From positions 17,546 through 81,545 of the forward strand of contig DATFHU010000006.1 of the NCBI GenBank assembly GCA_035248005.1: a stretch of DNA of 64,000 nucleotides, in the 5' to 3' direction. Each line of letters begins with the position of its first letter. Positions within the stretch are counted from its first letter, which is position 1. This DNA comes from Candidatus Saccharimonadales bacterium (GTDB lineage: Bacteria > Patescibacteriota > Saccharimonadia > Saccharimonadales > UBA4665). Below the pieces are notes generated by a model. That model was not told the DNA's origin. It saw only the letters and a list, made by a program, of their open reading frames with translations, and did no database searches. Of the stretch, positions 8,763 to 36,990 are shown one piece after another. A program made the position numbers and the translations under genes.

Positions 8763-8789
8763 AAAAAACACCTCCAAAACAGGGAGGTG
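8763..8789 (-). terminator. Intrinsic terminator downstream of tRNA-Lys
   Basis: CACCTCC/GGAGGTG stem with a T6 tail on the minus strand. Confidence 0.8.
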
Positions 8790-8824
8790 AAATCAGAACC
8801 TAAATTACATCTGTTAAAAATCCT

Positions 8825-21460: not shown

Positions 21461-22906
21461 ATGAAGTTTATTACTACTATTATGAAGCGCGTAGATCGTA
21501 TTACATCCAAGCAATTTATTGTTGCCGGTGTATTTTCGCTCGCGCTTGCCAGTTCTATTGGTCTTGGTTTAACGACCAAGCAGCACATTGGTGCCGCAAT
21601 CGTACGCGATGGCAGCCGCAACTCTATTGACTACGTTGATATGAACGGTGGTCCTGGCGCGGCTAACTGTAACGAGATGATCCAAGATATCCGTGACAAC
21701 CGGCCGAGCGACCTGCAGGCTATCTACCGCCATTTTGGTTTGAGTAGTGCCGACTACAGTCGTTTTGCCAAAGATTGTGAGCAAGGTACTTTATTCCTCG
21801 ATGGCCGTATTGAAGTAAAGGGTCACACTGTTATGACCAACGCCTGGACTATGGGCCGCCACACATTTGCCGGCCAGCGTGAGTCTATTAAAGTTCCTGG
21901 TAGCAGCACTACCTACTACCACAGCGCGCCTGCGGGTTCGTTCGCGGATGGCGTTAAATCGCTACCGGTTATGGTTATGTTCAACGAGAACGGTGTTGTA
22001 GAGGCCGCCATCCTGAACGCCTGTGGTAATCCCGTTACTCGCGGCAATAAGGTAACGCCGAGCGCCGTCTGTACCGCGCTTAAGTCAGCCCAGCCAGACA
22101 AGGTTAAAAAGCCAAACACTTACACCTTTACCGCCACTGCTTCTTTTAACGGCAACGCAACCTTTAGTCGCGTGGTATACCACTTTAGCGACGACAACAC
22201 CAGTGTCACTAAGACCAGTCTGACAGCTCCTGTAGAGCACACTTTCAAGAAGTCGGGTAAGGTTACGGTAAAAGTGTATGCCAAGGTTCCTGGCGGCAAA
22301 GAAATCGAAGCCCGCGTTGTAAACTGTGAAAAGCAAATTACCTTTACTCCTCCGTTCTACCTATGTACTGCTTTGGTTGCTTCTGCCTTGGACGACCAAA
22401 AGCGCAAGTTCCGCTTTACCGTTAAGGTAAGTATGGACGCTACCACTACCCTTAAACACGCTGACTTTACGTTAGATGGTACCAACACCACAACCGGCGT
22501 GACCACTAAGGACGCAAGCGGTAACATCTACAAAGACTACGCATTTACCGATGAAAAGACCCACAAGGTTGTTGCCACTGTTCACTTTAACACTTCGCAG
22601 GGTGTGCAAAGCAAAACCTGCCAGGCTAGCGTAACACCTGCCAAGCTGCCTAAGTGTGAAGTACCTGGCTTTGAGCACCTGCCTCCGAACGACGAACGTT
22701 GTGGTTACTGCTTGCCGGGTATTCCAAAGGGTGATGTACGCTGCACCCCTCCGCCTCCGGCACCCCCAGAAACCCCACCCGTAATGCCTGAAACTGGCGC
22801 TGCCGGTGCAGTAGGTTTGTTCACTGGCGTATCTGCCCTAGGGTTCTTTGGTCACAAGGTGTTTGTAAAGCGCCGTGCCCGCAAGAGCGAAAACGCCGTT
22901 TTATAA
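21461..22906 (+). CDS. Surface protein with PKD/Ig-like repeats and LPXTG-like sorting signal
   Basis: GAGGAGG RBS, N-terminal signal/TM, two beta-rich repeats, Cys/Pro-rich linker, MPETG + TM + KRRARK tail. Confidence 0.8.
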   Translation: MKFITTIMKRVDRITSKQFIVAGVFSLALASSIGLGLTTKQHIGAAIVRDGSRNSIDYVDMNGGPGAANCNEMIQDIRDNRPSDLQAIYRHFGLSSADYSRFAKDCEQGTLFLDGRIEVKGHTVMTNAWTMGRHTFAGQRESIKVPGSSTTYYHSAPAGSFADGVKSLPVMVMFNENGVVEAAILNACGNPVTRGNKVTPSAVCTALKSAQPDKVKKPNTYTFTATASFNGNATFSRVVYHFSDDNTSVTKTSLTAPVEHTFKKSGKVTVKVYAKVPGGKEIEARVVNCEKQITFTPPFYLCTALVASALDDQKRKFRFTVKVSMDATTTLKHADFTLDGTNTTTGVTTKDASGNIYKDYAFTDEKTHKVVATVHFNTSQGVQSKTCQASVTPAKLPKCEVPGFEHLPPNDERCGYCLPGIPKGDVRCTPPPPAPPETPPVMPETGAAGAVGLFTGVSALGFFGHKVFVKRRARKSENAVL

Positions 22907-23000
22907 GAGTCTGTGGATAAGCGGCTAGCAATACCTAGTAAATTGTGCTACAGTAGCCATTAACGAGCATTGACTGATCGCTCTACAAGAACTCTTGAGT

Positions 23001-23035
23001 AATCCCCTGGCCTCCGAGCCAGGGGATTTATTTTT
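23001..23035 (+). terminator. Intrinsic terminator
   Basis: AATCCCCTGGC/GCCAGGGGATT followed by T run. Confidence 0.8.
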
Positions 23036-23193
23036 CGTCCCTGTTATGTTAAAATAATCAAGTTCCAACAAAACCAAAATTTCAAACTATGTTTGGAATT
23101 TTGAGAAGAAGCATGGCAGGTTGCTAAACAAAGCCGGCCAAGCAAACTTGTTTTGTCGGACTGTCTTGTTGGCAAGTAAACCGATGCTGGCAA

Positions 23194-23268
23194 GGCCCCA
23201 TCGTCTAATGGTTAGGACACCGGGTTTTCATCCCGGCAACCGGGGTTCGAATCCCCGTGGGGTCACCA
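23194..23268 (+). tRNA. tRNA-Glu(TTC)
   Basis: GGCCCCA..TGGGGTC acceptor stem, CCGGG-TTTTCAT-CCCGG anticodon arm, TTCGAAT T-loop, encoded CCA. Confidence 0.97.
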
Positions 23269-23307
23269 ATTAATAATTTATATTTTGTCGAACTCTCGCC
23301 TGATGTA

Positions 23308-23336
23308 AAAAGCTCCTGGTCTATCCCGGAGCTTTT
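23308..23336 (+). terminator. Terminator after tRNA-Glu
   Basis: AAAAGCTCC/GGAGCTTTT inverted repeat. Confidence 0.7.
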
Positions 23337-23395
23337 GTCTTAACATCATTACGATCTGGTGATGAGTTTGACCCCCCTTGGGGTACAATAATTAT

Positions 23396-23746
23396 ATGAA
23401 GATCAAGAGGCCATTCAGTTGTGGGCTTGGTCCCGCGTTCGATCTGGTGGGCGGTCGCTGGAAAGCCATAATTCTATGGGAGCTAAGCCAGCAGGAACTT
23501 CGCTTTAGCGAACTCAGGGAACGGGCCGAAGGCATTACCGAAAAAATGCTACTGCAACAATTACGTGAGATGGAGCGGCATGGATTAATCGAGCGACACG
23601 ACTATAACGAAAAGCCCTTGCGTGTTGGCTACCGCCTGACCAATGAAGGGCGCATCGTCAATGAATTACTAATCCCGCTTGCCGAATGGGGCAAAGAGTA
23701 TGCCTACAGAATAGACATTACTGGCAATTACGTGCATGCCGACTAG
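23396..23746 (+). CDS. HxlR-family winged-helix transcriptional regulator
   Basis: VGGRWKAIILWEL, RFSELR, ITEKMLLQQLREME and Y.LT..G motifs. Confidence 0.92.
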   Translation: MKIKRPFSCGLGPAFDLVGGRWKAIILWELSQQELRFSELRERAEGITEKMLLQQLREMERHGLIERHDYNEKPLRVGYRLTNEGRIVNELLIPLAEWGKEYAYRIDITGNYVHAD

Positions 23747-24135
23747 TTATTTTTAAATATTTCGATCATATTGCCGTCAACATCGGTTGCCAGGAAAAAT
23801 TTGCCATTGAGGGAATCCATCGGGATTACTTCTGACACAATTTTACCTCCTGCAGCTTCGATTTTCCGGCCCGCAGCCTCCAAACTATCGACCTCGACCA
23901 GCACAACTGGGTGTTTTATGCCGGTAGCCCTTTTAATAATACAGCCGTTTACGCGTCCGCGCTCCTTGGCCACATAGTCGTCATTACTTGGGGAATTGAG
24001 GGCAATCTTAAAATCGTAATCTGGGTTCTTTTCTCTAATATCAGGCAGCATGTCCCATCCGAAGGCCTGATTGTAAAATGCAGCGGCCTTTTCTACGTCG
24101 TCGCTTGGGATGCTAAACCATGTTACTGGATTCAT
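23743..24135 (-). CDS. VOC/glyoxalase family protein
   Basis: PVTWFSIPSDD..KAAAFY..AFGW; D.DGN.IEI. Confidence 0.9.
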   Translation of the reverse strand: MNPVTWFSIPSDDVEKAAAFYNQAFGWDMLPDIREKNPDYDFKIALNSPSNDDYVAKERGRVNGCIIKRATGIKHPVVLVEVDSLEAAGRKIEAAGGKIVSEVIPMDSLNGKFFLATDVDGNMIEIFKNN

Positions 24136-24307
24136 ACTTGCTCTCCTGTACTATTAATTCAGACTGTATTCTCATTGTAGATAAGTTTTGACAGTGGTCA
24201 CAGTACTGTAAGGCTCCGTAGCGTTCATGTAACATATGTTATTACTCCGTCGATATTGACTATGCCCAAAGCCTTTACCTTACGCTCAAGTTCTTCTAAA
24301 CCTCAAA

Positions 24308-24371
24308 CAAGGTTTCGACCTGACTCGCTCTGTGATTCACCATTTCGTACCACAAATATTTTTTCGAACTC
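24308..24371 (+). repeat. tRNA-Glu array junction G1
   Basis: CAAGGTTTCGACCTGACTCGCTCTGTGATTCACCA, 33/35 identical to G5; TCGAACTC motif downstream, as after the tRNA. Confidence 0.85.
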
Positions 24372-24458
24372 CGGCATAATTCGGAGTTTTTATGTTGCTC
24401 CTTAGGTAGATTGGTCTACTTGACTCGTAATGAGCTAATAGTTATACTAGTAGATACT

Positions 24459-24725
24459 ATGAGTAATTACACAGCAACTATTATCAAGACAGGAAATTCG
24501 TATGCGCTTCGCGTTCCTAAGTCGTATGTGGAGAACGCTAAGTTAGAATTAGGCCAAAAGGTACAGATTGGCGCACCTGTGGCGCTCCCAAAAGATTACG
24601 ACCCTGAGGCTGTCAAAAAGGCAGTAAGAAACCTTCAGGCCGTAGGTGCGTTCCGTTCAATCAAAGACCCTGTAGCCTGGCAACGCGAAATACGCAAAGA
24701 CCGCCCTCTGCCTGGAAGAAGCTAG
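24459..24725 (+). CDS. AbrB/MazE-type antitoxin (VapB-like)
   Basis: IIKTGNSYALRVPK AbrB motif; DPVAWQREIRKDR C-terminus; upstream of a PIN toxin. Confidence 0.85.
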   Translation: MSNYTATIIKTGNSYALRVPKSYVENAKLELGQKVQIGAPVALPKDYDPEAVKKAVRNLQAVGAFRSIKDPVAWQREIRKDRPLPGRS

Positions 24726-24733
24726 GATAAATC

Positions 24734-25096
24734 ATGTTGTGTTTTGACACGAACGTTATCATTTACCTTGGTAATCAGATGCTTGACGAAAGTATTATCG
24801 GCAAAGAACCTATTTGTTATGCCTCGGCTAGTCTCATAGAGGCGCTTGGTTACCCCGACATCTTAGCAGCAGAAGAGCAGCGTATTAAAGAGCTCTTCGA
24901 TACGATGATCGAGATACCTCTTAATGCATCTATAATCCAGGCAGCAGTGCGGCTGAGGCAGCTTAAAAGAATGAGTCTGGGTGATGCTATTGTTGCAGCA
25001 ACAGCATTGGAAAATGACTGTGTGCTCTGGACGGCAAATATTGAGGATTTTGCACATATTGACGGATTACGTCTGTATAACCCTCTAAAGACCTAA
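24734..25096 (+). CDS. vapC: PIN-domain toxin
   Basis: FDTNVIIY, E, LGDAIVAATA and T.N..DF PIN residues. Confidence 0.9.
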   Translation: MLCFDTNVIIYLGNQMLDESIIGKEPICYASASLIEALGYPDILAAEEQRIKELFDTMIEIPLNASIIQAAVRLRQLKRMSLGDAIVAATALENDCVLWTANIEDFAHIDGLRLYNPLKT

Positions 25097-25105
25097 TCAC
25101 TCTCT

Positions 25106-25181
25106 AGTGCCTTCAACTGTAGCTCAATATATTCCAACTCACCGAAGAAGGTTTCGGCCTGTTTCGCTGTTAGGTTCACCA
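25106..25181 (+). repeat. tRNA-Glu array junction G2
   Basis: 76 bp, 65/76 identical to G6 (36230-36305), ends in GGTTCACCA. Confidence 0.85.
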
Positions 25182-25267
25182 TTGCAATTATTACATTACC
25201 AACAGATGGGAAAGTTTCAGATTTTATTTTCTGGAACTTTTTGTTTTGACCTCTACCCCTGTTATTT

Positions 25268-25294
25268 CGGGGTTCGATCTCCCGTAGGCAGCCA
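25268..25294 (+). other. Isolated tRNA 3' fragment (T-arm + acceptor strand + CCA)
   Basis: CGGGG-TTCGATC-TCCCG-TAGGCAG-CCA; no D or anticodon arm upstream. Confidence 0.6.
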
Positions 25295-25496
25295 ACAATA
25301 GTTTGTCGAACACCTTGACCACGGTAAAATTGTTCTATGCATATACTCATAACCGGTGGCAGCAAGGGCATTGGCCTTGAGGCGACTAAACTCGGGATGG
25401 CAATAAACTTTGTAGGCTAGGCGTAGCTTTGACTTACCCTACAATTAATTAGCACAATTGCTCGCCATACGTTCATATGGGCAGCTCCAGACTACC

Positions 25497-25754
25497 CTAC
25501 CCGTACAACTGACTGCGTGTACCGAGCGTATCAAAAATCGCTTCGTTTTCTTTTTGTAAATATAGTGCTCGGATATCGCCTGTAACATCAATGCTACGAT
25601 ATTCTTTATATTTTCCTTTGAGCTGATGATTACGCAAAAGGGGATGGAGGGGATTATTACTAAAAATGGTGAGCCGTTCCAATAGTTTCTTGCGAGCTTC
25701 CGGGTCTAATTTTTTTGCCTGTTTGACGAAGTTTTTCGAATACGAGATTGTCAT
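25497..25754 (-). CDS. RelE/YafQ-family mRNA interferase toxin
   Basis: I.YSK.F.KQ.KKL, L..H.L.G.Y..YRSI.V.GD.R. Confidence 0.9.
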   Translation of the reverse strand: MTISYSKNFVKQAKKLDPEARKKLLERLTIFSNNPLHPLLRNHQLKGKYKEYRSIDVTGDIRALYLQKENEAIFDTLGTRSQLYG

Positions 25755-26032
25755 TACAGCTCTTTAGCTAGGAAATCGAGTGCTTTTTTGTTGGATTCAA
25801 ATGAATGGTAGTCGCCAGCTTCTATCTCTTTTCTAGAGGCTGTTAGCTGTTTGGCTGTCCTATCGTTTGGCACTTCAGGAACATCAAAAACAACACTTTG
25901 CTCGGCCGTAAAACGCCGTAGTTCATTGTTAAGAATTGCGCTGATGCTAATACCCAACTTATCGGCAGTTTCTTGCGCCAACTTTTTGAGTTTAGGATCA
26001 GTTTTGAGGTTTATGACTGCATAGTTACTCAT
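25754..26032 (-). CDS. RelB/DinJ-type antitoxin
   Basis: INLKTDPKLK..A...ADKLGISIS ribbon-helix-helix; PN motif; upstream of the toxin. Confidence 0.85.
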   Translation of the reverse strand: MSNYAVINLKTDPKLKKLAQETADKLGISISAILNNELRRFTAEQSVVFDVPEVPNDRTAKQLTASRKEIEAGDYHSFESNKKALDFLAKEL

Positions 26033-26154
26033 ACCAAAAGTATATACCTTTGGTATAGTAGTTGTCAATAATCGTAAGCAACATAAATCATATTGCCATT
26101 AATTTCAACGACACCCAAAGCCTTAAGTTTAGGATCGATATCTAAAGCATCAAG

Positions 26155-26189
26155 CAAGGTTTCGACCCGACTCGTCCTATAGTTAAACA
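26155..26189 (+). repeat. tRNA-Glu array junction G3 (degenerate core)
   Basis: CAAGGTTTCGACCCGACTCGTCCTATAGTTAAACA, 27/35 identical to G1. Confidence 0.75.
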
Positions 26190-26371
26190 TTGCAATTATT
26201 GCATCATTACAGATTAAGAAGAGTTCCATGATTTATTTTGGACTTTTTGTTTAATTCTTATCTATTATTTGAGTTCGATTCCCGGGAGGGTGATAGCGCA
26301 TGCCTATAGGGTTTCCATTACTATGAAATTATGATTGAGTTAGTATCAAATAGTTATTATGATGATTAATC

Positions 26372-27076
26372 ATGGCTAAACTTATTCTTATTCGTCATGG
26401 CCGCTCACGTGGCAATGCTAATAAAGGAATTATCCAAGGCAGTGGTCCTGACCCTGCCAATACCTTAGACGATCTTGGTGAGCGTCAAGCGCACCGGCTT
26501 GGTCAAACTTTTGCGGATCGGGAGATATCTCCTGCGGTCGTCTGGTCGTCTCCGCTGGCGCGCGCCCGGCAAACCTGTGATACTGCACTGGAAGTAATGG
26601 GTTGTAAACTACCCGTAACTGAAGACGATCGGTTGCGCGAAATGTGTAAGGGTCTGGCGGGTTTACCGGGCGGCATGGAGGGGCGGCCTCGTGGCGACGT
26701 TGAAACGCCGCAGTACTGGCTAGAGTACAAAAAGCAGGGATGGCAATTCCGTCATGGCTCACTACAAAGCGGAGGTGAAACTGCTGAAGAAGTCGGCATC
26801 CGCACTCTGTCCGCCATGAACGATATTGCCGATCACGTGGGCAGTAACGCAACCGCGTTAGTTTTTACTCATGGTCAAGCCATACGTTTCGGCATAGGTG
26901 CAGCGTTGGATTGGCCGGATATACAACAGGTAAATACTGAGTATATGTTGGGAAACTGTGAAGGTATTGTTATGGGCCGCGGTACCCGCAATCTGTCGTG
27001 GCATGTTGCCAGCCGCATTGCGTGCGCAGGCAGCCTAAACGAAACTATTATACCAGGCAGCACTGACCGGCATTAA
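26372..27076 (+). CDS. Histidine phosphatase family protein
   Basis: LIRHG, WSSPLARARQT, LREM and FTHG motifs. Confidence 0.92.
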   Translation: MAKLILIRHGRSRGNANKGIIQGSGPDPANTLDDLGERQAHRLGQTFADREISPAVVWSSPLARARQTCDTALEVMGCKLPVTEDDRLREMCKGLAGLPGGMEGRPRGDVETPQYWLEYKKQGWQFRHGSLQSGGETAEEVGIRTLSAMNDIADHVGSNATALVFTHGQAIRFGIGAALDWPDIQQVNTEYMLGNCEGIVMGRGTRNLSWHVASRIACAGSLNETIIPGSTDRH

Positions 27077-27335
27077 TTTTCCAACATTCTTACAATATTT
27101 TCCAGCCGTTTAACCGCTGTATAGCTTGTCAACTCGTTCACTCATTTGCAAACTAGGCCACATACAAAGTGTCCATAATTCCAGGAATTTATTTGCGAAA
27201 TTATATACTGGCTAGCAACCGATGCGCCAAAACAAATTATTGGCCCCATAATAGATATTATGGGGGAGCCTACCTTCATTCTCGGACAAGTGGTGATGCA
27301 ATTTTGCTGCTCCATATGTGGTGTAAAATTTTTGT

Positions 27336-28184
27336 ATGAGCTATGAAAATTTAACACCTCTTACTCAAGAGGAAATAGAGCGTATAGGGGTAAAGGAGTC
27401 CGAGCCTGGCTATCCGCCCCTGTCGAATAGACTGATTGTTCCTCGTGACCAATGGGATCAAATGGTAGCGGAGAATAGTATAATTATTCCGGATGATCCG
27501 GCTTATCACATCACTGATCATCCTAATCGTCGTAATGTTGCAGAAGATCAGCGGGATGATATCGCTACCGTTGGTCGGCCTATGTCTGCAGGGCTGGTAG
27601 CCTACTGGAAATCACTCGGTCTGCATGTAGATACTGCGGGCCGGCCGCTGCATCCGCGTGCAGCTGAGGTCTTGCCAGTGACAGGCATGTATACCGGCCC
27701 GGGCTGGAGTTATAGGTATGGCCCACAACGAATCGGCAATCTAGGCTTGCGTCGCACACGAAACAGTAGGGTGGAGTATGCGGTTGTTGCCGTACAGCGC
27801 AGAACTGTGATGTGGGGTTTGCCTGGCGGTTATGCCGAAATGGGCGAAACTCCAAGGCAAGCTGCTTTTCGGGAGGGCAGTGAGGAAGCAGGTGTTGACT
27901 TGCGCAAACAGGAACTTCAACGTCTTGTCGGACGGCTGGTGTTAAGAGACGTGCTTGCAAGGTTAAAGTGTTCTCCTAAAGACACATTACATGCTTGGCT
28001 GGAGGAGTGGTTTACAATCGTGCATAGCCCGGAAAACCCAGCCCTGGAAGGAGTTGAACTGAGGAACGGCGACACGGAAGTGCTTGAGATGGGCTGGATG
28101 GAGGCTGCGGAGATTGTAAGCCGTAAAGATTTTCTTGGCACTCACAAGAGAGTAGTCAGAGCACATGAGGGCATGGGCCAATGA
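27336..28184 (+). CDS. NUDIX hydrolase, ADP-ribose pyrophosphatase (NUDT9)-like
   Basis: GRPLHP...TG..G.G..YRYGP N-terminal motif and W.LPGG...GE....AAFRE.SEE box. Confidence 0.8.
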   Translation: MSYENLTPLTQEEIERIGVKESEPGYPPLSNRLIVPRDQWDQMVAENSIIIPDDPAYHITDHPNRRNVAEDQRDDIATVGRPMSAGLVAYWKSLGLHVDTAGRPLHPRAAEVLPVTGMYTGPGWSYRYGPQRIGNLGLRRTRNSRVEYAVVAVQRRTVMWGLPGGYAEMGETPRQAAFREGSEEAGVDLRKQELQRLVGRLVLRDVLARLKCSPKDTLHAWLEEWFTIVHSPENPALEGVELRNGDTEVLEMGWMEAAEIVSRKDFLGTHKRVVRAHEGMGQ

Positions 28185-28285
28185 GTGAATTTCAGCTTGG
28201 GAATGAACCGGTACAAAGTGTCATCATATGGCGTCATACACTTTTTAATAGATAAGCAGGCTTAACCGGGGAGGCGGCAAAAGAA

Positions 28286-28963
28286 GTGGTGAAAAGAGGT
28301 TTGAAACGTGATGATTATGACCCATGGCCTTTATTGGCGGAAGGTGTACAGCAGGCGGAATTGCTGCGCCGGGAGGTAGGACAGTTTGCCATTGATGCTT
28401 GCCTCTGCTCGCCCACTTTGCGCACCAGACAGACGGCGGATATTGTGCTTGGCGAGAGACAGATCGAGGTTGAGTATATGGAAGAGCTGCGGGAACGTGA
28501 CCGGGGAATATTTGCATATATGCCTGATGAATGGTCGGATAATCATCCCCTGTATAGAATCGGCAAGGAGTCGTTTCGGAAATGGCACCCCGGAGGTGAG
28601 GGCATGCAACCCCGAGCCGAAACAATTGAAGAAGTCATAGCTCGTATTGATTCTGCAGTGCTACGTCGGGCCGATGCCCTTGCGCCCGGAGGTTGTGTTG
28701 CCATTAGTACGCATGGCGAAACTATGGCAGCATTTCGTGGTGTACGGCGACTGGGTGCACGTGATGATGCCCGCTACGCCATGCCTGTTATTCCAAATCA
28801 TAAAGATATTAAACCCCACAAAAAGGCGAGTTGGATTGGACAGGTACAGATTGATATATATGAGCGGCGAGCAGATGGCCCTGAGATGACGCATTTCAGA
28901 ACACTCGGCTACCATAAAGGCGAGCGCTTTGGCACTGACTGGATAGAAATTGTGAGAGACTAA
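28286..28963 (+). CDS. Histidine phosphatase family protein (N-terminal RHG not visible)
   Basis: CSPTLRTRQTA, LRERDRG and ISTHGE; no RHG in the called ORF, which may be truncated or divergent. Confidence 0.75.
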   Translation: MVKRGLKRDDYDPWPLLAEGVQQAELLRREVGQFAIDACLCSPTLRTRQTADIVLGERQIEVEYMEELRERDRGIFAYMPDEWSDNHPLYRIGKESFRKWHPGGEGMQPRAETIEEVIARIDSAVLRRADALAPGGCVAISTHGETMAAFRGVRRLGARDDARYAMPVIPNHKDIKPHKKASWIGQVQIDIYERRADGPEMTHFRTLGYHKGERFGTDWIEIVRD

Positions 28964-29040
28964 TTTTCTGCCAGTGCTATTGCTCGGACGATATATTCAA
29001 TTCTCGCAAGCCTTTGTTCATTTGTTCTAGACCCGCCCAT

Positions 29041-29110
29041 AAGGTGTTCCAATTCAGACTCCACAGGGTCACCAAGTTGAAACCATATATTTTATCTTAT
29101 CGAACTCTCG
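29041..29110 (+). repeat. tRNA-Glu array junction G4
   Basis: GGGTCACCA (29066-29074) is identical to the tRNA end; TCGAACTCTCG (29100-29110) is identical to 23288-23298. Confidence 0.8.
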
Positions 29111-29310
29111 ACAGAGACGAAGAAATAGCTTCAAGTACTTGGAATTATTTCTTTAGCTCACTATTACACCTTTAGCAAGTTTTGATTCTCTTAGGGTTGT
29201 ACAGCGCAATACCCTGAATAGCTATCTGTTATATTGATGTTCGATTCCACCGGAGGCTGTCGTTTATCTTTCTGGCGTATGATTCTAAAGGTATACACTA
29301 CAATAAAGAC

Positions 29311-30126
29311 ATGAAGATAACTGTTCTAGGCTCCGGCGCGTGGGAAGGAATACCCGCTCCCTTCTGTCATTGTGGAGTATGTGTTGAAGCCACTAAGAAC
29401 CCGCATTCAATAAATAGCCGGACGCGACCTCAGTTGCTTGTGGAGAATGAAGAACAAAATTTTTTAGTAGAAGCCAGCCCTGATATTAGAATACAATCAG
29501 CCAGGTTTTCATTACCGCCAATACGAGACTTCATAATAAGTCATTGGCATTTTGACCATATGTATGGCTTACATGAACTTTTTGCATATAGCAAATATAA
29601 GGCTCATGGTTTGAATTTTTATTGCTCGAGAGATACCAAAAAAGTGCTCGATGACGAAGAATTTAACTATGTCCCAGCCGAAGTTATTGAGGTAAAGGCA
29701 TTCAAACCATTTGAACTGGCAGGAATTAAGGTCACACCCTTGCCGACATATCATATGCGTGATAGAGACGACCAAGTGGGCGAGGACCAGCTTGCGAATA
29801 CCTTTGGCTACCTGCTCGAGCATGATGGAAAGCGTGTGGCATATCTGGCGGATTATTACCGAGTTCCGCAGGCGGTTAAGGCACTACTGCGTGGAATAGA
29901 TGCTGTGATATGCGATGGTACCTACCTACTAACTGACGATTATAAAAGTTACAAGCCAAACCATATGCACGGTAAAGAAGGCATGGAACTTGCCGAAAAT
30001 TTAGGGGCAAGGCAGGTATATTACCATAGTGTGTCGCACCTCACCGGCAAAGATCACGATGCGCTTCAAGCGGCACTTCCGGCCGGTCATTCACTTACAT
30101 ACGATGGCATGAAGTTGGAATTCTAA
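29311..30126 (+). CDS. MBL-fold metallohydrolase, PhnP-like
   Basis: LGSG..GIP..FC.C..C, SHWHFDH, YH, D and H motifs. Confidence 0.92.
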   Translation: MKITVLGSGAWEGIPAPFCHCGVCVEATKNPHSINSRTRPQLLVENEEQNFLVEASPDIRIQSARFSLPPIRDFIISHWHFDHMYGLHELFAYSKYKAHGLNFYCSRDTKKVLDDEEFNYVPAEVIEVKAFKPFELAGIKVTPLPTYHMRDRDDQVGEDQLANTFGYLLEHDGKRVAYLADYYRVPQAVKALLRGIDAVICDGTYLLTDDYKSYKPNHMHGKEGMELAENLGARQVYYHSVSHLTGKDHDALQAALPAGHSLTYDGMKLEF

Positions 30127-30299
30127 GATAATTGGATCGCCGTAGGTTCACCATAAGAGATTATTGCCCATATCTGGAGCAACAAACAGGGCGCAAAAAC
30201 TTCCCCTTACAACATCCCGACAGCAATGCCTTGTGGCTCTGCCAATGTGGACTTAGCCCAATGTTGACACGGTGGTATAACAAAAGTTATACTTTAATC

Positions 30300-30536
30300 A
30301 TGAAGACAGCAATCTCTATACCAGACAATACATTCCAGTCAGCTGAGAAGCTCGCCAAGCGTCTGGGCAAATCTCGTAGTCAGTTGTATACCCAGGCCCT
30401 AAATAGTTATTTAGAGCAGAACGGTGAGAAGGGTGTGCAAGAATTGCTTGATAAAGTGTACGCTACCGAAGAATCTCAACTGCCCCCCTCGATGAGGCGA
30501 TTACAGTCCAAGGTTGTTAGTAAGGAACAATGGTAG
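30300..30536 (+). CDS. Ribbon-helix-helix antitoxin (MazF partner)
   Basis: MKTAISIPD..F..AE.LA..LG.SRSQLY..AL. Confidence 0.85.
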   Translation: MKTAISIPDNTFQSAEKLAKRLGKSRSQLYTQALNSYLEQNGEKGVQELLDKVYATEESQLPPSMRRLQSKVVSKEQW

Positions 30537-30871
30537 GCCGTGGTCAGATTTGGTGGGTGGATTTGTCTGAGCCACTGGGTTCTGAGCCGGGCTATACTAG
30601 GCCGGTCGTTATTGTGCAAGCAGATGTCTTTAACCGGAGCCGGATAAGCACGGTTATGGCGATTGTCATCACCTCCAATGTTCGCCTTGCCGAGGCCCCT
30701 GGAAACGTTCTATTGCTTGCTGATAAAACCGGGCTTAAGAAAGATTCCGTGGCGAACGTTTCTCAGACCGTAACTATTGATAAACGGGCATTGCGCGAAC
30801 AAGTTGGAGAACTCGACAACGAAACTATGCGGTTAATTGATGAGGGCATGCGTTTGGCGCTTGGTCTTTAG
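30530..30871 (+). CDS. mazF: PemK/MazF family toxin
   Basis: RGQIWWVDL..P.GSEPG..RP.VIVQ.D.FN; DS.ANVSQ..TIDK. Confidence 0.93.
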   Translation: MVGRGQIWWVDLSEPLGSEPGYTRPVVIVQADVFNRSRISTVMAIVITSNVRLAEAPGNVLLLADKTGLKKDSVANVSQTVTIDKRALREQVGELDNETMRLIDEGMRLALGL

Positions 30872-30912
30872 GGCGCTATATAATTTTGGGTCAAGTTCCT
30901 CTAAAGCTTCAG

Positions 30913-30947
30913 CAAGGTTTCGACCTGACTCGCCCTGTGGTTCACCA
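30913..30947 (+). repeat. tRNA-Glu array junction G5
   Basis: CAAGGTTTCGACCTGACTCGCCCTGTGGTTCACCA, 33/35 identical to G1. Confidence 0.85.
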
Positions 30948-31331
30948 AAAGAGAAGATGATATGATTTATATCCTCTTCTCTTTTGTAGGGCCATAGGGC
31001 CGGGTATACTCTTCTCGGCAGTGGAAAGCGGCGTATACTGAGTGGGAGGTAAGGGAATGTGCAGTGTCTATTATCAGTCAGTACGTGTTGCTCGATGGTC
31101 CCTGGCATAATGCGCATTGTGCAGTGGCGGCATAGGTTTTTAAGCTGGCAGTTGACGGCTATCTTACAGTTAGTTTCAGCAAGACTACTCAATCCGTTAT
31201 TGAAAATCCTCCATTTTGCACTTGTTGTATAGATAACAGAGACAGAGGAGCGATGAGCAGTTGCCACGCTGCGGCTTGTAATTAATGCAAGGTTCTGATA
31301 TCGTTAGCGACAACTAACGGAGTAAGAGGAT

Positions 31332-32528
31332 ATGTCCGAGTTTCGTGCTGATGTTACTGTTGTGGGCGGAGGCATCGCCGGGCTATGGTCTGCGAAAGAG
31401 CTGATCGATCAAGGGCTTACGGTTGATGTTGTCGAACGTACCGAGAGCCTTGCGAATGGCCCCACTACCAGAAACGAGGGCTGGCTGCATGCGGGCACAT
31501 ACCACTCGGTGGCCGTGTATGACGAAGAGGGCGCCAGGCAGGTAACTGAACGTACTGTATATGGTCATGACGCTATCCTTGGCTTCGTACCTGAAAGTGT
31601 CGAACACAGCCCAAGCTTCGCGATCTTCGCCGAGGAGGACCTAGTGCAAATTGCGCTTCGAAAATGGGATCAATTTAATATTCCGCACCAGGAGGTATCA
31701 AAAGGCAAGTTTGCAGCCGATGGGCTGGACACTGATAGGATAAAAGGGGCGTTTGCGGTCCGCGACCGCAGTGTAAACTCACGTGTAATCGTTGGCAGGC
31801 TGGCAGACTATATACTGGATAATGGCGGCCGAATATTCACGGGCGCAGCTCTTACCCCTACAGGCGGCACAACCGCAGACGTTGAGATTGACGGGGAGCG
31901 GCACAAATTCTCGTCCGACGCATTTTTGGTAACGGCAGGTGTTGGTACGAAAAAAGTCTTTGAGGAGATCACCGACACGCCATTCCCGATGCGTTACTTT
32001 AAGTCGCACTTATCTGTCGTGCCACGTATCAGCCAGGATAACATTTTCTACATGGACCCGCTCGAAGCCGGTTTGATGAGCCACGGCGGAGCTACCATCG
32101 TGGGCATTAACCGTGAAGCAGTAGAGGTTGAAACGCCTGAATACGGGGTATTGTTTGATAAGGTACGGCTCGTGCATGACGCCCTTCATCGTATGATGCC
32201 TGAGGTGGGTCGGTCGGCGCTTGCAAACGCTCTTGATGTCGCTTGTGTGAAAGCGGACGTAGCTGATGATGTTTCCAGACGGCGATCCGTTGATACAACG
32301 CAAGTCCTACAGGACTTAAACATTAAAGTATTTGAGCCGGTAGAGGGCTGGGTCTGTGCCATTCCTGGCAAAATGACCGAAGCACCGGCACTCGCGCGTG
32401 TGGCGGCCAACCGGATTATGAGCAGAGAATTTAGTGATTCGGAGCATGACGGTGGTACTAACCACGGGCACGCCCGGCCGCAAGTGACTTTACGACCAGC
32501 CGACCGCTGGCTGACAAGGCAGCCGTAG
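31332..32528 (+). CDS. FAD-dependent oxidoreductase (DAO/GlpA-like)
   Basis: VVGGGIAG Rossmann motif, VVER, T.RNEGWLHAG, PGKMT. Confidence 0.85.
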   Translation: MSEFRADVTVVGGGIAGLWSAKELIDQGLTVDVVERTESLANGPTTRNEGWLHAGTYHSVAVYDEEGARQVTERTVYGHDAILGFVPESVEHSPSFAIFAEEDLVQIALRKWDQFNIPHQEVSKGKFAADGLDTDRIKGAFAVRDRSVNSRVIVGRLADYILDNGGRIFTGAALTPTGGTTADVEIDGERHKFSSDAFLVTAGVGTKKVFEEITDTPFPMRYFKSHLSVVPRISQDNIFYMDPLEAGLMSHGGATIVGINREAVEVETPEYGVLFDKVRLVHDALHRMMPEVGRSALANALDVACVKADVADDVSRRRSVDTTQVLQDLNIKVFEPVEGWVCAIPGKMTEAPALARVAANRIMSREFSDSEHDGGTNHGHARPQVTLRPADRWLTRQP

Positions 32529-32565
32529 GCGTACTCACCCTATTATGTTATAGTGGCGCTTATTA

Positions 32566-33198
32566 ATGGCTACGGGAGAAAACATGGACGACTATCTAAA
32601 GAAAACACGGCAAATCAAAGGGTTCTTGGACGCAAATGAAGCTGTTGCAACTTTAGGGGCCGACAATGCCGTTCTTGACCCGTACTCGGTACTCATCAGC
32701 AAAGAGGTTAAAGTCGGCAAAGGTAATGTTTTTTACCCAAACGTCATCATTGAAGTTCAGGGCGGCGGTACAATAGCTATTGGTGACAACAACGTGTTCT
32801 ATCCCGGCACCTACCTCCTAAGTTCCGCAGGTTCCATAACTGTAGGTAATGACAATGAGTTCGGCACTAATGGTTGTACTATCAAGGCTAATATGCCGGA
32901 CGCACAAATTACCATTGGCGACAATGGCCGCTACTGTGACGGCGCCAATATTATGGGTAAGACTAGCCTCGGCAGCGGCAGTCAGGTACTCGGTGCCATT
33001 ACCGTACAGGGTTGCATATTGGCCGCTGGTGGCACATTTCAGACGCCTGATCCTGACAAACGGGCGGCTGTCCTGAAGGGTTTTGGCCTAGCGCGGGGCA
33101 TTACTCTCGAAAAAGGCCAGGTTGTTAACGGTTCGGGCAATTTTGCCGACCGACCGGTAGAATGGCAACATGACTATCACCCAAAGGTTAAGGCATAA
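32566..33198 (+). CDS. Left-handed beta-helix (hexapeptide) acyltransferase-like protein
   Basis: Repeats VKVGKGN, IAIGDNN, ITVGNDN, ITIGDNG. Confidence 0.85.
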   Translation: MATGENMDDYLKKTRQIKGFLDANEAVATLGADNAVLDPYSVLISKEVKVGKGNVFYPNVIIEVQGGGTIAIGDNNVFYPGTYLLSSAGSITVGNDNEFGTNGCTIKANMPDAQITIGDNGRYCDGANIMGKTSLGSGSQVLGAITVQGCILAAGGTFQTPDPDKRAAVLKGFGLARGITLEKGQVVNGSGNFADRPVEWQHDYHPKVKA

Positions 33199-33200
33199 GG

Positions 33201-33962
33201 ATGGTGGAACTTGGCTGTGGCCTTATTGCTATCGGGCGGCAATGGGGTACAACACCTGAAGTGCCGAGCGAAGCAGGTGCCATCACCTTCTTGCAAGGGG
33301 CATATGATGCTGGTGTGCGGTTCTTCGATACTGCACCGTCCTACGGTTTGAGCGAGGAGCGATTAGGTATTTTCTTGCGTTCATTGACACCTGAACAGCG
33401 CAGGGGGGTCCGCGTTGCTACAAAGTTCGGGGAACACTGGGACTCCCAGGAACGGACAGTATACGCTGACCACTCGCTAGATGCGCTCAAGCGTAGTTTC
33501 GATCAAAGCCGCAGCCGCTTGGGCGAGATCGTTATCCTACAGCTACACAAGACAACGCCTGCGCTGCTCAAAAGTCCAGTGATCGCTGAAGCTTTTAATT
33601 ATGCACTGGCGAACGGTGCTAAACAGATCGGAGTAAGCGTAAGCGACTCGGTTTCTGCCGAGATTGCACTGACAGATGACCGTTTTAGTGTCGTACAGCT
33701 GCCATACAACCCTGCAAGCCCGCAATTTCATGATGCAGTTGCTTCCGCCTGTGAACATGGTAAAGAGCTGCTGATTAACCGACCGTTGCAAATGGGCAAT
33801 ATTACCGCCGCAACGCAAGACAGCGAATCGAAACAGGCTGCCGTAGTGTCGGCGTTCCGCTTTATATTGCAAGAGGAGTTTGACGGGGTTATATTGACCG
33901 GCACCGCAAATCTCGGACACCTACAGGAGAACATGGCGGCATTTACTGCCGCTCAGCAGTAA
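33201..33962 (+). CDS. Aldo/keto reductase
   Basis: LGCG, FFDTAPSYG.SEERLG, ATKFG, LQLH and QLPYN motifs. Confidence 0.92.
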   Translation: MVELGCGLIAIGRQWGTTPEVPSEAGAITFLQGAYDAGVRFFDTAPSYGLSEERLGIFLRSLTPEQRRGVRVATKFGEHWDSQERTVYADHSLDALKRSFDQSRSRLGEIVILQLHKTTPALLKSPVIAEAFNYALANGAKQIGVSVSDSVSAEIALTDDRFSVVQLPYNPASPQFHDAVASACEHGKELLINRPLQMGNITAATQDSESKQAAVVSAFRFILQEEFDGVILTGTANLGHLQENMAAFTAAQQ

Positions 33963-33969
33963 ATTTGGC

Positions 33970-34578
33970 ATGAAAACAATCGTCAACGAAGACATCAACA
34001 GGCACGTCAATGGCTATATGGTTAACACCGTGCCGAGTTTGGCAAACCGCCAAAAAGTAGCCGACTTTCAAGCCAAACTCGCAGACCAATTTGGTAAGAG
34101 CCTGTGGTTGACACCGTCAGGTACGCTGCATATCACTCTCATGGACTGGATTGCGCCGCTGGTGGACTACGGAGAAGCTAAAGACAAGTTATTCAAAAAA
34201 TACTTTGCCGAATACGATGAAGCCCTCACTGATCTCACCGCACATGAGAAGCCTATTACCGTGCATTTCGATATGGTAAAGGCAACACCCGGCGCTATCA
34301 TTCTGACCGGAGAAGATGATGGAAGCTTTCAACGTATTCGCGATGGCTTTCTTGGCAAGGCCGCGCTCCTGCCAGGCACCAAGCAGCCGCCAACCATTAT
34401 TCACTCGAGTCTTGCCCGCTATACTGCCGAGCAGGACTTGGGACCGATTGCCGAATTTGTGGCCAATAATAACATTGTGTCATTCGACCACACCGTAACG
34501 CATTTCCGGCTCGTCCAGGAACACATAGCACCGCAGCTTAATTATACCCTTATTAAGGAGTACTCACTTGGGGGATAG
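33970..34578 (+). CDS. 2H phosphoesterase (2'-5' RNA ligase-like) family protein
   Basis: Two Hx[T/S] motifs: LHITL and IHSSL. Confidence 0.8.
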   Translation: MKTIVNEDINRHVNGYMVNTVPSLANRQKVADFQAKLADQFGKSLWLTPSGTLHITLMDWIAPLVDYGEAKDKLFKKYFAEYDEALTDLTAHEKPITVHFDMVKATPGAIILTGEDDGSFQRIRDGFLGKAALLPGTKQPPTIIHSSLARYTAEQDLGPIAEFVANNNIVSFDHTVTHFRLVQEHIAPQLNYTLIKEYSLGG

Positions 34579-34585
34579 GAAACAT

Positions 34586-35026
34586 ATGAAAGTACTTGTT
34601 ACCCGTGGTGCAGGTTATATAGGGGCACATACGGTCGTTGAGCTATGTACGCGTGGATATGAGGTTGTCATTTTGATAATCTCTTTAACAGTACCTCCGA
34701 AGTCATTGCGCGGGTGCAAAGTATAATCGGCTTCAAACTGCCGTACTACGAGGATGATGTACGGGATAAGGCGTTGCTTGTCCGCTTAAGTACTGGCAAA
34801 GGCGTGTCGGTACTTGAGATGATTCATGCGTTCGAGAAAGCAGCGGGCAAAGTATACCATATGAGATTGTCGGCCGACGCTCAAGTGATCTACCAAGCTA
34901 TTACGCAGATGCCCCTGAAAGGCTCAAACTGAACTTGGGCTGCACGCTGAAAAAGCCATTGAAGATGCTTGCGCCGACAGTTGGCGCTGGCAGTCATGTA
35001 ATCCGGATAGATATCCATTGCGATAG
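34586..35026 (+). pseudogene. galE: UDP-glucose 4-epimerase remnant
   Basis: MKVLVT.GAGYIG.HT start, frameshifts, a large internal deletion joining to TGKGVSVLEM..AFEKA, and a C-terminal DSWRWQ..NP. Confidence 0.85.
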
Positions 35027-35119
35027 ACGCTCTTGTAGTATAATGGCATGGCTACACTCATTGACAAAACAGCACTGGCAAGATTACGACAACGAGATGC
35101 AGCAAGTTAGGAGTATACA

Positions 35120-36085
35120 TTGCGTAAAGACAAACAGATTCTGATTGCTGGCGGAGCTGGCTTTATTGGCTCTCATTTATGTGAAGCATATCTTGCGGAG
35201 GGCGCTCATGTGACATGCATAGACAATACCTCTACCGGGAGAAAACAGAACATCCGTCAGTTTATTAAGGAGCCTAACTTCTCTTTTCATCAAGTTGATA
35301 TCTGCGAATCCTTGCCTGCAGAAGTTACGAAGCAGAAGTACGATTTCATCCTGAACTTGGCTTCTCCGGCGAGTCCGCCAAAGTATCAGGAACTAGCCAT
35401 TGAGACACTTCTTGTAGGCGCGATTGGAACAAAAAATTTACTAGATCTAGCCAGAAGGGATAACGCTCGATTTTTCCACGCGTCTACCAGTGAAGTATAC
35501 GGTGATCCGACCGTTCATCCTCAGCTTGAATCCTACTATGGCAACGTGAATTCCTATGGCCCGCGTGCCATGTATGATGAGGCGAAGCGCTTTAGTGAAG
35601 CATTGATCTATGTTTACAGAAACAAGTATGGGCTTTCGACTGGTACCGCCCGCATTTTCAATACATATGGTCCCGGAATGGATCCTGAAGATGGCCGTGT
35701 TGTTTCAAACTTCATAACCCAGGCGCTTGCAGGCAAGCCACTGACAATTTATGGTGATGGTAGTCAGACACGAAGCTTTTGCTACGTTGATGACCTCGTC
35801 AAAGGAATCATGAAGTTGGCTGCATCGGACGAAGAGGGGCCAATCAACCTGGGGAATCCGAGTGAGTTCACTGTGTTAGAGTTAGCCGACCAGATTATCG
35901 AGTTAGCTGGAACGCAATCGAAACTAGAGCATCACCCCCTTCCTGTTAATGACCCGACACAAAGACAACCAAATATTTCTAAGGCGAAGGCTAAACTGGC
36001 ATGGGAGCCACGAGTATCCCTTCATGACGGTTTAGGCAAGACTATTACGTATTTTAGAGAAACTCTGGGTATCTCTAGTTATTGA
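35120..36085 (+). CDS. UDP-glucuronate decarboxylase (UDP-xylose synthase) family SDR
   Basis: GGAGFIGSHL, NLASPASP, STSEVYGDP..HPQ.E.Y.GNVN..GPR..YDEAKR, DGRVVSNF and GDGSQTRSFCYV motifs. Confidence 0.92.
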   Translation: MRKDKQILIAGGAGFIGSHLCEAYLAEGAHVTCIDNTSTGRKQNIRQFIKEPNFSFHQVDICESLPAEVTKQKYDFILNLASPASPPKYQELAIETLLVGAIGTKNLLDLARRDNARFFHASTSEVYGDPTVHPQLESYYGNVNSYGPRAMYDEAKRFSEALIYVYRNKYGLSTGTARIFNTYGPGMDPEDGRVVSNFITQALAGKPLTIYGDGSQTRSFCYVDDLVKGIMKLAASDEEGPINLGNPSEFTVLELADQIIELAGTQSKLEHHPLPVNDPTQRQPNISKAKAKLAWEPRVSLHDGLGKTITYFRETLGISSY

Positions 36086-36229
36086 GTGACTTGAGTTGCG
36101 CCCATCGTTCTAGATAATGCTAGTTCGAAAACTCACTCTAAGATCAGAGGCACCTTCAAAGCTGCCATTATGAGTTTTTAAACATTCGCAAATATCTAAG
36201 CCCTAGAGCCATTTCTGTTCTACATGCCC

Positions 36230-36305
36230 AGTGCTTTCAGCTGTGCCTCAATATATTCCAACTCACCGAAGAGAGGTTCGACCTGTTTCGTCGTTAGGCT
36301 CACCA
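36230..36305 (+). repeat. tRNA-Glu array junction G6
   Basis: 76 bp, 65/76 identical to G2, ends in GGCTCACCA. Confidence 0.85.
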
Positions 36306-36411
36306 GTACGAAAATTATTCTACAGGATATCTCTGTTATTTTGGTATTCGACCCGCCATAATCGAATCGCATACAAAGTTTCACTAAGGAATATTAAACG
36401 GGTTGTGAATT

Positions 36412-36990
36412 TTATAAAGCCAGGTATTTTATGAGTTTTTGAGTAAAGCGATGCATGTTGGGGTCGAAAATAACTGGGCTCGATTCTAGTACTTCTTGAA
36501 ATGAGAACCACGCTACATTACTAAACTCGCGACGGTCAAAGTTTAGGTGGTCATGAAGCTGCCCTCTTAGCAGGTACCAAAGGCTGACATCGGTATGGCC
36601 TGCGGTTAGGCCGACTGTTTGGGTAACCGTAACAAAAAACGGCTTGTCATTGCTGCGCAGAAAGACTGCTTTTTGGCCCAACTCTTCCTGAGCTTCGCGC
36701 ACAACGGTACCTCTGGGGTCTTCGCCAAGTTCGACATGCCCGCCAGACGGGAGCCATAACTGTGCTTTTATATGATCGGCCAAGAGCAGACTTTTATGGT
36801 CTGGATCAATCAGCACGAAGTACGATACTAAATGTTTGGGTGGTTTATCTGGGCTTTCAATTCTATAGATATTCAGGCCGCTTTCTATCCAGGCAAGCGT
36901 ATCAGCAATATGTTCGCGCTCGACATCGTCATAAGGTTCGATATGTTGCACAAGGCGATACACATTCGATTCGGCTGCCCGTAACTCCAT
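36412..36990 (-). CDS. NUDIX hydrolase
   Basis: PPKHLVSYF, LWLPSGGHVELGEDP..TV.REAQEELG. Confidence 0.92.
   Translation of the reverse strand: MELRAAESNVYRLVQHIEPYDDVEREHIADTLAWIESGLNIYRIESPDKPPKHLVSYFVLIDPDHKSLLLADHIKAQLWLPSGGHVELGEDPRGTVVREAQEELGQKAVFLRSNDKPFFVTVTQTVGLTAGHTDVSLWYLLRGQLHDHLNFDRREFSNVAWFSFQEVLESSPVIFDPNMHRFTQKLIKYLAL

Follow-up and report, generated by a model that had tools for sequence, protein, structure and literature searches.

Downstream of the tRNA-Glu(UUC) gene in a 64,000-nt stretch from a Candidatus Saccharimonadales bacterium (hereafter the window, meaning the whole stretch), six direct repeats delimit six gene cassettes within about 13 kb (positions 23194-36305). 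The genome is a 1.5-Mb assembly from a rhizosphere (soil) metagenome. Sequence comparison makes it highly probable that this array arose as six small integrative elements were successively stacked in tandem at the 3' tip of tRNA-Glu(UUC) by large serine recombinases (LSRs) of a tRNA-Glu-specific clade in Saccharimonadales. The repeat is homologous to the C-terminal tail of LSRs specific for tRNA-Glu, the cassette borders map to a short core, and relatives carry intact two-ended elements. Judged by this homology, each junction repeat is the displaced tail-coding end of such an LSR gene together with the core, and attP lies inside the LSR open reading frame (ORF). An initial annotation of this DNA had already read the junctions as att-type and the modules between them as cassettes, and that part stands; what it had missed, and what is new here, is the recombinase family and the coding origin of the repeat.

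Junction repeats at tRNA-Glu

The tRNA gene, its attachment core and the six junction repeats (G1-G6) are located as follows; tRNA genes were called with ARAGORN and Rfam, protein domains with Pfam, and tail homology with tblastn, using an LSR fragment from the related genome G006 (three-digit numbers denote genomes).

23194-23268 (+): tRNA-Glu(UUC), called by ARAGORN; Rfam tRNA match of 65 bits
23259-23268: attachment core, the last ~9-10 nt of tRNA-Glu(UUC), GGGGTCACCA; in G003, the homology of a shared cassette begins at the last bases of the tRNA
24262-24345 (-): junction repeat G1, LSR tail stub MVNHRASQVETLFEV-stop, shortened by a frameshift (tail ORF 24343-24296)
25093-25184 (-): junction repeat G2, open 29-codon LSR tail MVNLTAKQAETFFGELEYIELQLKALESD-stop
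26065-26192 (-): junction repeat G3, open 41-codon tail MFNYRTSRVETLLDALDIDPKLKALGVVEINGNMIYVAYDY-stop
28977-29077 (-): junction repeat G4, divergent tail subtype LVTLWSLNWNTLWAGLEQMNKGLRELNISSEQ-stop
30867-30950 (-): junction repeat G5, LSR tail stub LVNHRASQVETLLKL-stop, frameshifted as G1
36220-36308 (-): junction repeat G6, open 28-codon tail LVSLTTKQVEPLFGELEYIEAQLKALGM-stop

The repeats are about 83 nt long and end at 24342, 25181, 26189, 29074, 30947 and 36305, and all junctions fall between gene modules. The initial annotation had given the same six end positions, which we reproduced, and its identities between copies (33/35 for G1/G5, 27/35 for G1/G3, 65/76 for G2/G6) were recovered exactly after alignment. 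Its description of the core as tRNA-Glu-like holds in part: from G1 to G6, the junctions match the last 10 nt of the tRNA at 7, 8, 5, 9, 8 and 8 positions, but the exact 10-mer GGGGTCACCA was found in the tRNA alone. The best core match among the junctions is that of G4 (AGGGTCACCA, 9/10), and the core of G3 has decayed to TTAAACA. As a member of the repeat family G4 is the weakest, with an nhmmer E-value of 1.9e-10 versus 1e-16 to 1e-20 for the others; its tail resembles the far-end tails of the intact elements in G083 and G002 described below. A left arm derived from the tRNA was also considered and ruled out, since the match to the tRNA is confined to ~10 nt. An Rfam scan of 22500-37500 returned the tRNA as its sole match and no known RNA family at the junctions.

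When an nhmmer profile built from the six window copies was run on the whole assembly, eight copies were significant: the six of the window and two (H1 and H2) on contig C14. The C14 copies stand immediately 3' of the second tRNA-Glu gene (CUC), on the same strand as that tRNA, and they also separate modules, namely a 292-aa ORF and then two minus-strand genes. Nine genomes of the same genus had a match, of which we examined five. In G003, G004, G006 and G011, all copies lie downstream of tRNA-Glu(UUC) in the same orientation; those of G019 cannot be placed relative to a tRNA because its contig begins inside the array. The gene upstream of the tRNA is common to the window, G006 and G011, and the next one upstream to the window, G003 and G011; the downstream modules differ among the window and the relatives that share these upstream genes. 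The association of the repeat with tRNA-Glu is thus beyond chance. Dispersed copies unrelated to tRNA-Glu or to module borders, which the initial annotation had named as the observation that would speak against it, were looked for in the genome, and 8/8 copies proved to be at tRNA-Glu, on the tRNA strand.

Recombinase tails, arms and cassette borders

In G006, a minus-strand ORF of 221 aa ends in the repeat, which makes up its final 28 codons; over 184 aa, this ORF shares 46% identity (E 5e-49) with the C-terminal region of a 529-aa protein of G002. The homologues in G002 and G083 carry Pfam Resolvase and Recombinase domains and are therefore LSRs. G013 has the repeat joined without a break to an LSR fragment at an internal junction; the contig end cuts this fragment. 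Within the window, the G006 LSR fragment matched G6 through its residues 177-204 (64% identity, E 3.7e-6) and G2 through residues 176-202 (56% identity, E 2e-4). Anchored on the core, the tails of this genome fall into one frame (8/8) and share the motif (L/M)V(N/T)..QVETLF..LE....LKALG; the intact form of the frameshifted G1/G5 subtype is H2. The idea that the junction frames are inconsistent, with conservation at the DNA level only, was dropped once the core-anchored frame proved single, with frameshifts in G1 and G5. The left arm resembles the tRNA over ~10 nt; beyond these, homology identifies it as displaced 3'-terminal coding sequence of a tRNA-Glu-specific LSR. Because the left arm has this origin, the elements appear to derive from recombinase-bearing elements with attP inside their own integrase gene.

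LSR homologues of the G006 ORF occur in 65 of the 301 genomes of the order Saccharimonadales that were surveyed, most of them with open frames of ~510-620 aa. At each of the 16 homologue loci checked, a convergent tRNA stands at the LSR 3' end (tRNA-Glu in nine, tRNA-Met in seven). Reading on past the core, the homologue ORFs extend into the antisense strand of the tRNA, and their last codons are antisense tRNA-Glu sequence, ..MVIPRRIELLLPG-stop (pattern ..(M/L)V(I/T)PRRIELLLPG-stop). The initial annotation had suggested searching relatives for the arms beside a recombinase gene at tRNA-Glu; LSR elements with both ends preserved are seen at tRNA-Glu in two genomes. The 4.4-kb element of G083 consists of tRNA-Glu, the LSR gene, cargo, a stub LVTRLETKWNLICEEILRWQQLL..stop at a 9-nt repeat of the tRNA tip, and then a terminator; the 6.1-kb element of G002, which belongs to the same genus, has the same layout. 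Both have the 9-nt repeat, GGTCACCA(A) or GGGTCACCA, at attL as well as attR. A short core common to the target and both element ends, as expected of LSR elements, is thus found in G083 and G002 as well as in the shared cassette discussed below, whereas a Resolvase and Recombinase gene on board is found in G002 and G083 and is missing from the window. By this comparison, the window cassettes are to be classed as derivatives or satellites of LSR elements rather than complete members.

Two further LSR genes of the genus (~580 aa; L094 in G008 and L095 in G001) adjoin tRNA-Glu(UUC) and are unmatched by the G006-type fragment; tRNA-Glu may thus be a target for more than one LSR clade.

Behind the core, the junctions carry right arms of two types. 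The type-A arm (~30 nt, ATATTTT..TCGAAC) lies 3' of the tRNA, G1 and G4; the shared cassette has it too. Its motif TCGAACTC occurs within 23000-37000 at 23288, 24364 and 29100 only, which confirms the three right-arm positions reported before. The type-B arm (~100 nt) is a hairpin with a T run, then CTGTTATTT..GGTTCGA..CC; it follows G2, G3, H1 and tRNA-Glu(CUC), and also G6 (36306-36365), there without the hairpin. With either type, a terminator-like hairpin comes to stand behind the core. Cassette 6 lacks both arm types; its start and the G5 core are spanned by an inverted repeat of 32 nt at 30932-31000 (81% complementary, 5-nt loop). We also considered T-loop-like GTTCGAnnCC motifs, 80-170 nt after G2, G3, G4 and G6, as displaced tRNA fragments marking the true att sites. 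They were set aside because they are part of the type-B arm, which is found behind various sites, and because the cassette borders map to the TCACCA core.

The hairpin after tRNA-Glu (e.g. AAAGAGACTTTTCCTTTGCGGAAAGGTCTTTTTT) lies inside antisense LSR coding sequence (..KKDLSAKEKSLLV) at two loci with intact elements, L041 in G083 and L056 in G262. There, one DNA stretch would therefore serve as both tRNA terminator and C-terminal codons of the integrase.

The limits of a single unit can be read from a toxin-antitoxin (TA) cassette of ~900 nt that is common to G003, G004 and G019, with 83-84% DNA identity including its non-coding arms. It holds two minus-strand ORFs (102 and 88 aa) and no recombinase. 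Its left neighbour is the tRNA in G003 and another repeat in G019 and G004, the one in G004 being a divergent junction that the profile had missed. In all three genomes, the homology starts at ..TCACCA and ends with the cassette's own ..TCACCAT, and the sequences outside are unrelated. The unit therefore runs from the border at one core through right arm, cargo and 80-nt left repeat to the next core. These borders bear out the earlier view that each junction is the left arm, core and right arm of adjacent elements, and that such attP-like hybrids are tied to the tRNA-Glu 3' end. By comparison, a conserved core gene (442 aa) has 65-71% DNA identity among these three genomes. Since the cassette is the more similar of the two, this recombinase-less unit has probably moved between species as a whole, a single core gene being a thin yardstick.

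A relative of the cargo of this TA cassette (67% identical; C22:11791-12384) lies ~1 kb downstream of tRNA-Tyr(GTA) in the window's own genome and lacks the cassette arms. The same cargo is thus also found behind a different tRNA.

The six cassettes of the window, all on the plus strand of the array, and their cargo are:

23269-24342 (+): cassette 1, type-A right arm 23273-23303 (TCGAACTC at 23288), ending in tail stub G1
23378-23746 (+): HxlR regulator, cassette 1
23743-24135 (-): VOC/glyoxalase, cassette 1
24343-25181 (+): cassette 2, type-A arm with terminator hairpin 24366-24389, ending in tail stub G2
24411-24725: VapB-like antitoxin, cassette 2
24734-25096: PIN/VapC toxin, cassette 2
25182-26189 (+): cassette 3, type-B right arm 25182-25300 (hairpin and T run, then CTGTTATTTCGGGGTTCGATCTCCC), tail stub G3
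25497-25754 (-): YafQ toxin, cassette 3
25754-26068 (-): RelB antitoxin, cassette 3
26190-29074 (+): cassette 4, type-B arm 26190-26305, ending in tail stub G4
26372-27076: His_Phos, cassette 4
27336-28184: NUDIX, cassette 4
28286-28963: His_Phos, cassette 4
29075-30947 (+): cassette 5, type-A arm 29085-29115 (TCGAACTC at 29100), ending in tail stub G5
29311-30126: metallo-beta-lactamase-fold protein, cassette 5
30132-30536: RHH-like antitoxin, cassette 5
30530-30871: MazF/PemK toxin, cassette 5
30948-36305 (+): cassette 6, hairpin across the junction, ending in tail stub G6
31332-32528: DAO oxidoreductase, cassette 6
32566-33198: 210-aa ORF, cassette 6
33201-33962: AKR, cassette 6
33970-34578: 2H phosphoesterase, cassette 6
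34568-35144: galE pseudogene, cassette 6
35120-36085: UXS-like epimerase/dehydratase, cassette 6

The stack thus carries three TA pairs, a regulator with a VOC enzyme, phosphatase and NUDIX genes, and a sugar-modification cluster. Pfam agrees with the module contents that had been proposed, from HxlR and VOC through DAO, AKR, 2H and the epimerase. As in type II TA systems, small toxin and antitoxin genes with family domains lie side by side (PIN, E 6e-6; YafQ, 1.6e-9; RelB, 4e-6; PemK/MazF, 2e-26; the RHH match is weak), and a 104-aa ORF adjoins the PIN gene upstream. The galE pseudogene consists of an N-terminal Rossmann piece and a C-terminal piece in three short frames, immediately 5' of the intact UXS-like gene. 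Upstream of the array are a histidine kinase and a PKD-domain protein, downstream a NUDIX gene and a lectin-type adhesin; no recombinase was found among the flanking genes on either side.

Proposed mechanism and alternatives

In the mechanism that we propose, attP lies within the last ~30-40 codons of a recombinase gene that runs antisense to the tRNA. Crossover would occur in the shared ~7-9-nt core (G)GTCACCA(T), presumably within TCACCA(T), and would leave the recombinase body beside the tRNA, where it would gain a short tail from the antisense strand of the tRNA (...LVTPRGFEPRLPG-stop or similar). The native tail-coding piece would be moved to the far end of the element and become the ~83-nt junction repeat, or P arm, and the conserved 30-100 nt behind each core would represent the P' arm of the next-older element, with its terminator hairpin. 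At internal junctions of stacked elements, a tail is again joined to the body that follows. Fresh insertions, entering where the tRNA end has been regenerated, would push older cassettes outward, so that the oldest would be the distal ones; the position of the TA cassette in slot 1 of G003 versus inner slots in G004 and G019 fits this order. The six window elements are without a recombinase body, whether by loss or from the outset, which leaves cargo framed by tail stubs. It is the catalytic events, the order of insertion and the manner of recombinase loss that we infer.

Several observations weigh against this stack of LSR-borne elements. Pfam and tblastn with the G006 LSR fragment found no LSR gene or remnant in 23194-36305, in keeping with the earlier description of the cargo as recombinase-free. 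None of the seven LSRs of this assembly is of the tRNA-Glu type, and no Resolvase-domain gene was found in G004 or G006, both of which have arrays and one Xer-like tyrosine recombinase only. Canonical LSRs recombine attP with attB only and not with attL, so repeated insertion at an occupied tRNA calls for explanation. A scan for dyad symmetry around the cores, LSR-like or attC-like, found no consistent centre. The type-B arm also occurs behind tRNA-Leu(CAG) and elsewhere in the genome, and a type-B profile did not significantly match intact LSR genes at their 3' ends. The other type-B copies in this genome are:

C4:283-400: type-B arm copy
C17:109434-109560 (-): type-B arm copy
C8:139234-139312: type-B arm copy
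C4:15654-15696: type-B arm copy
C4:92248-92343: type-B arm copy

The C17 copy has a GGTTCACCA core before the arm but lacks a tRNA-Glu-type tail.

A refinement of the proposed mechanism, compatible with it and bearing on the present state of the cassettes, is quite possible, though we hold it tentatively: the cassettes would be non-autonomous units, like integron cassettes or mobilisable mini-elements, with a minimal attP (tail-derived P arm, core and short P' arm), excised and inserted in trans by the tRNA-Glu LSR of an autonomous element elsewhere or in another cell. The TA cassette, with the same structure in three species, in different slots and at 83-84% identity versus 65-71% for the core gene, fits such units, as does the occurrence of the same ~30-nt type-A arm on unrelated cargo (after the tRNA, G1 and G4, and in the TA cassette). 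The left arm-core-right arm (P-core-P') junctions of G006 and G013, through which an LSR reads, could supply a full-length enzyme. Against this, genome divergence was judged from one core gene, this genome holds no cognate LSR, and G004 and G006 hold no LSR at all. The frameshifts in two of the six tails would be harmless to a DNA site, yet they fit decay equally well. Circles, empty sites, joints or strain variants of the array were not seen in the source rhizosphere sample, where assembler contigs only were inspected; the one loose end, at 24329, corresponds to the repeat that H2 on C14 has in common with the window. Given the TA cassette found in three species and the short arms that recur around unrelated cargo, we lean, with reservation, towards movement in trans over decayed relics for at least some of the cassettes.

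A broader reading built on the same observations is more speculative. Saccharibacteria may run an integron-like gene-cassette system based on LSRs and tRNA 3' ends, in which recombinase-less cassettes with an attP of ~110-190 nt (tail-coding sequence, core and right arm with terminator) would be captured, stacked and exchanged between species in trans. The enzymes would be tail-complete LSRs, re-formed at P-core-P' junctions or coming from autonomous elements, with one system per tRNA isoacceptor.

It is improbable that the repeats are instead small functional antisense genes encoding micro-peptides (28-41 aa) whose frames start in the core. In favour, one frame with a conserved motif is open in six of the genome's eight tails, ATG is the first codon of G2 and G3, and several of the differences between G2 and G6 are synonymous. 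However, the frameshift ends G1 and G5 after 15 codons, G4, G5 and G6 would start with TTG or CTG in no evident start context, and none of the peptides has a Pfam match. In G006 and G013, a far longer recombinase ORF ends, in frame, with this very sequence, and tails that had evolved as part of recombinase genes before their deposition would be expected to look coding.

We regard it as very improbable that a tyrosine recombinase made the array in an integron-like or P4-like manner, whether through IntI and attC, a tRNA-island integrase, or Xer as in integrative mobile elements exploiting Xer (IMEX). The short, TA-rich cassettes of the array recall chromosomal integrons, GTTAGGY near the boundary of several repeats resembles an integron core site, and an Xer-like recombinase is the sole recombinase present in every genome examined. 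Yet GTTAGG is missing from G1, G3, G4 and G5, the symmetry scan revealed no attC-like dyad, and the two Phage_integrase (PF00589) genes of this genome are far off on C10 and C4, with none beside any array. Moreover, the repeat is an LSR tail, and the LSRs of relatives stand at exactly the same site.

Dispersed elements of the repetitive extragenic palindromic (REP) or miniature inverted-repeat transposable element (MITE) kind, or local tandem duplication with homologous recombination, have a negligible chance of explaining the repeats: the copies do form sub-families, and an 80-nt repeat could allow RecA-mediated exchange in Saccharibacteria, which are reportedly naturally competent, but instead of many scattered intergenic copies there are eight, all in one orientation at two tRNA-Glu loci, the modules between them are mutually unrelated and hence not duplicates, and the shared cassette is homologous from the core onwards whether a tRNA or an unrelated repeat stands to its left, which is not expected of flank-dependent exchange.

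Related systems and other tRNA genes

Among known systems, the integrative stack that we propose is closest to LSR elements and phages such as phiC31, Bxb1, A118/LI, TP901-1 and SPbeta (SprA). As in these, the enzymes of the relatives, ordinary LSRs in domain content and 520-600 aa in length, have Resolvase and Recombinase domains and a C-terminal region without a Pfam domain, placed at the LSR end by homology; attL and attR share a short core, and the elements of G083 and G002 are small. Unlike them, the target here is a tRNA 3' tip, which is unusual for LSRs, attP lies inside the integrase ORF so that integration would swap the tail of the enzyme, and elements accumulate in tandem, with no integrase left in the window stack. 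An older generalisation holds that serine integrases do not target tRNA genes (PMC4383910); the tRNA-targeting LSRs described here run counter to it.

The layout has a counterpart in the archaeal SSV-type "suicidal" tyrosine integrases, whose attP lies inside the int ORF and whose hybrid enzymes can be re-formed from pieces of differing origin (PMC7253208). In both, the recombination site is in the integrase frame, integration at a tRNA gene sends the C-terminal gene piece to the far end, and leftover gene pieces pile up beside tRNA genes; the P-core-P' junctions of G006 and G013 are comparable to the re-forming of hybrids. The differences are that the enzyme here is a serine recombinase of an unrelated family in a bacterial host, and that only the last ~30-40 codons would be lost and ~13 tRNA-antisense codons gained. 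As the tail is merely swapped, an integrated LSR need not be dead. In the relatives' LSR elements an ORF crosses the crossover site and its 3' piece stands at the other element end, as in split-integrase systems, but the domains are Resolvase and Recombinase and not those of a tyrosine recombinase; by analogy, these elements appear to work like such systems without belonging to them. They would thus represent a bacterial serine-recombinase counterpart to the archaeal split integrases.

The IntP/IntX integrase of myxophage Mx8 is said to have attP in the 3' end of int, so that integration into a tRNA gene alters its C-terminus. Mx8 differs in being a single prophage with a tyrosine recombinase and no stack of integrase-less cassettes. 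With the tRNA island arrays recognised by Islander and TIGER and with chromosomal integrons, the window array shares direct core repeats at the borders, growth at one site, content that varies between species and frequent TA cargo. Islander arrays are, however, defined by one tyrosine integrase and one displaced tRNA fragment per island, whereas each repeat here holds ~10 nt of tRNA and ~70 nt of integrase tail, and the six units hold no integrase. Integrons need IntI, attI and attC with inverted R''/R' core sites; here, the repeat is the remnant of an integrase tail, the PF00589 genes are on other contigs, no consistent dyad was seen, and GTTAGG is present in some copies only. In the literature searched, we found no description of an LSR-tRNA split architecture or of such arrays in Saccharibacteria or Patescibacteria. 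An integron-like array that seemed to lack an enzyme can now be given a probable enzyme family and an exact site, the last bases of tRNA-Glu.

The pairing of LSR genes with tRNA genes extends beyond tRNA-Glu. Four of the seven LSRs in this genome run antisense into tRNA genes as full-length ORFs:

C17:105378-107054: LSR ORF running into tRNA-Gly(GCC)
C4:72879-74717: LSR ORF running into tRNA-Ala(GGC)
C20:32755-34419: LSR ORF running into tRNA-Arg(GCG)
C17:121098-122831: LSR ORF running into tRNA-Phe(GAA)

A fifth (C14:66608-68323) has a tRNA-like antisense stretch, GLDSNQRPSGY, at a place where no tRNA gene was called. Across the genus, a convergent tRNA stands at the LSR 3' end in 21 of 30 loci, covering at least 13 isoacceptors that include Lys(CUU) and both Glu genes. 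The initial annotation had proposed two parallel capture systems, at tRNA-Glu and tRNA-Lys; the arms do differ, the tRNA-Glu repeat profile having no match at the tRNA-Lys array, but in view of the genus-wide count the number two was an understatement. Because most LSR genes of the genus are paired with a tRNA, this mechanism may rank among the chief ways in which accessory genes (TA pairs, regulators and sugar-modifying enzymes, for example) are acquired and reshuffled in these very small, host-dependent genomes. Native LSRs of Saccharibacteria with short, conserved targets at tRNA tips could also become tools for site-specific integration in a genetically difficult group.

The tRNA-Lys(CUU) array of the window lies at 2448-8901 on the minus strand. 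Its tRNA tip, (G)ACCCTCCA, recurs at 7483-7492, 6939-6948, 6251-6260, 5387-5396 and 2458-2467; most of these copies are followed by a terminator-like hairpin, and the antisense frames encode WR(V/A/G).. tails. An LSR gene of G005 adjoins tRNA-Lys(CUU) (L081). This layout points to the same logic with another enzyme.

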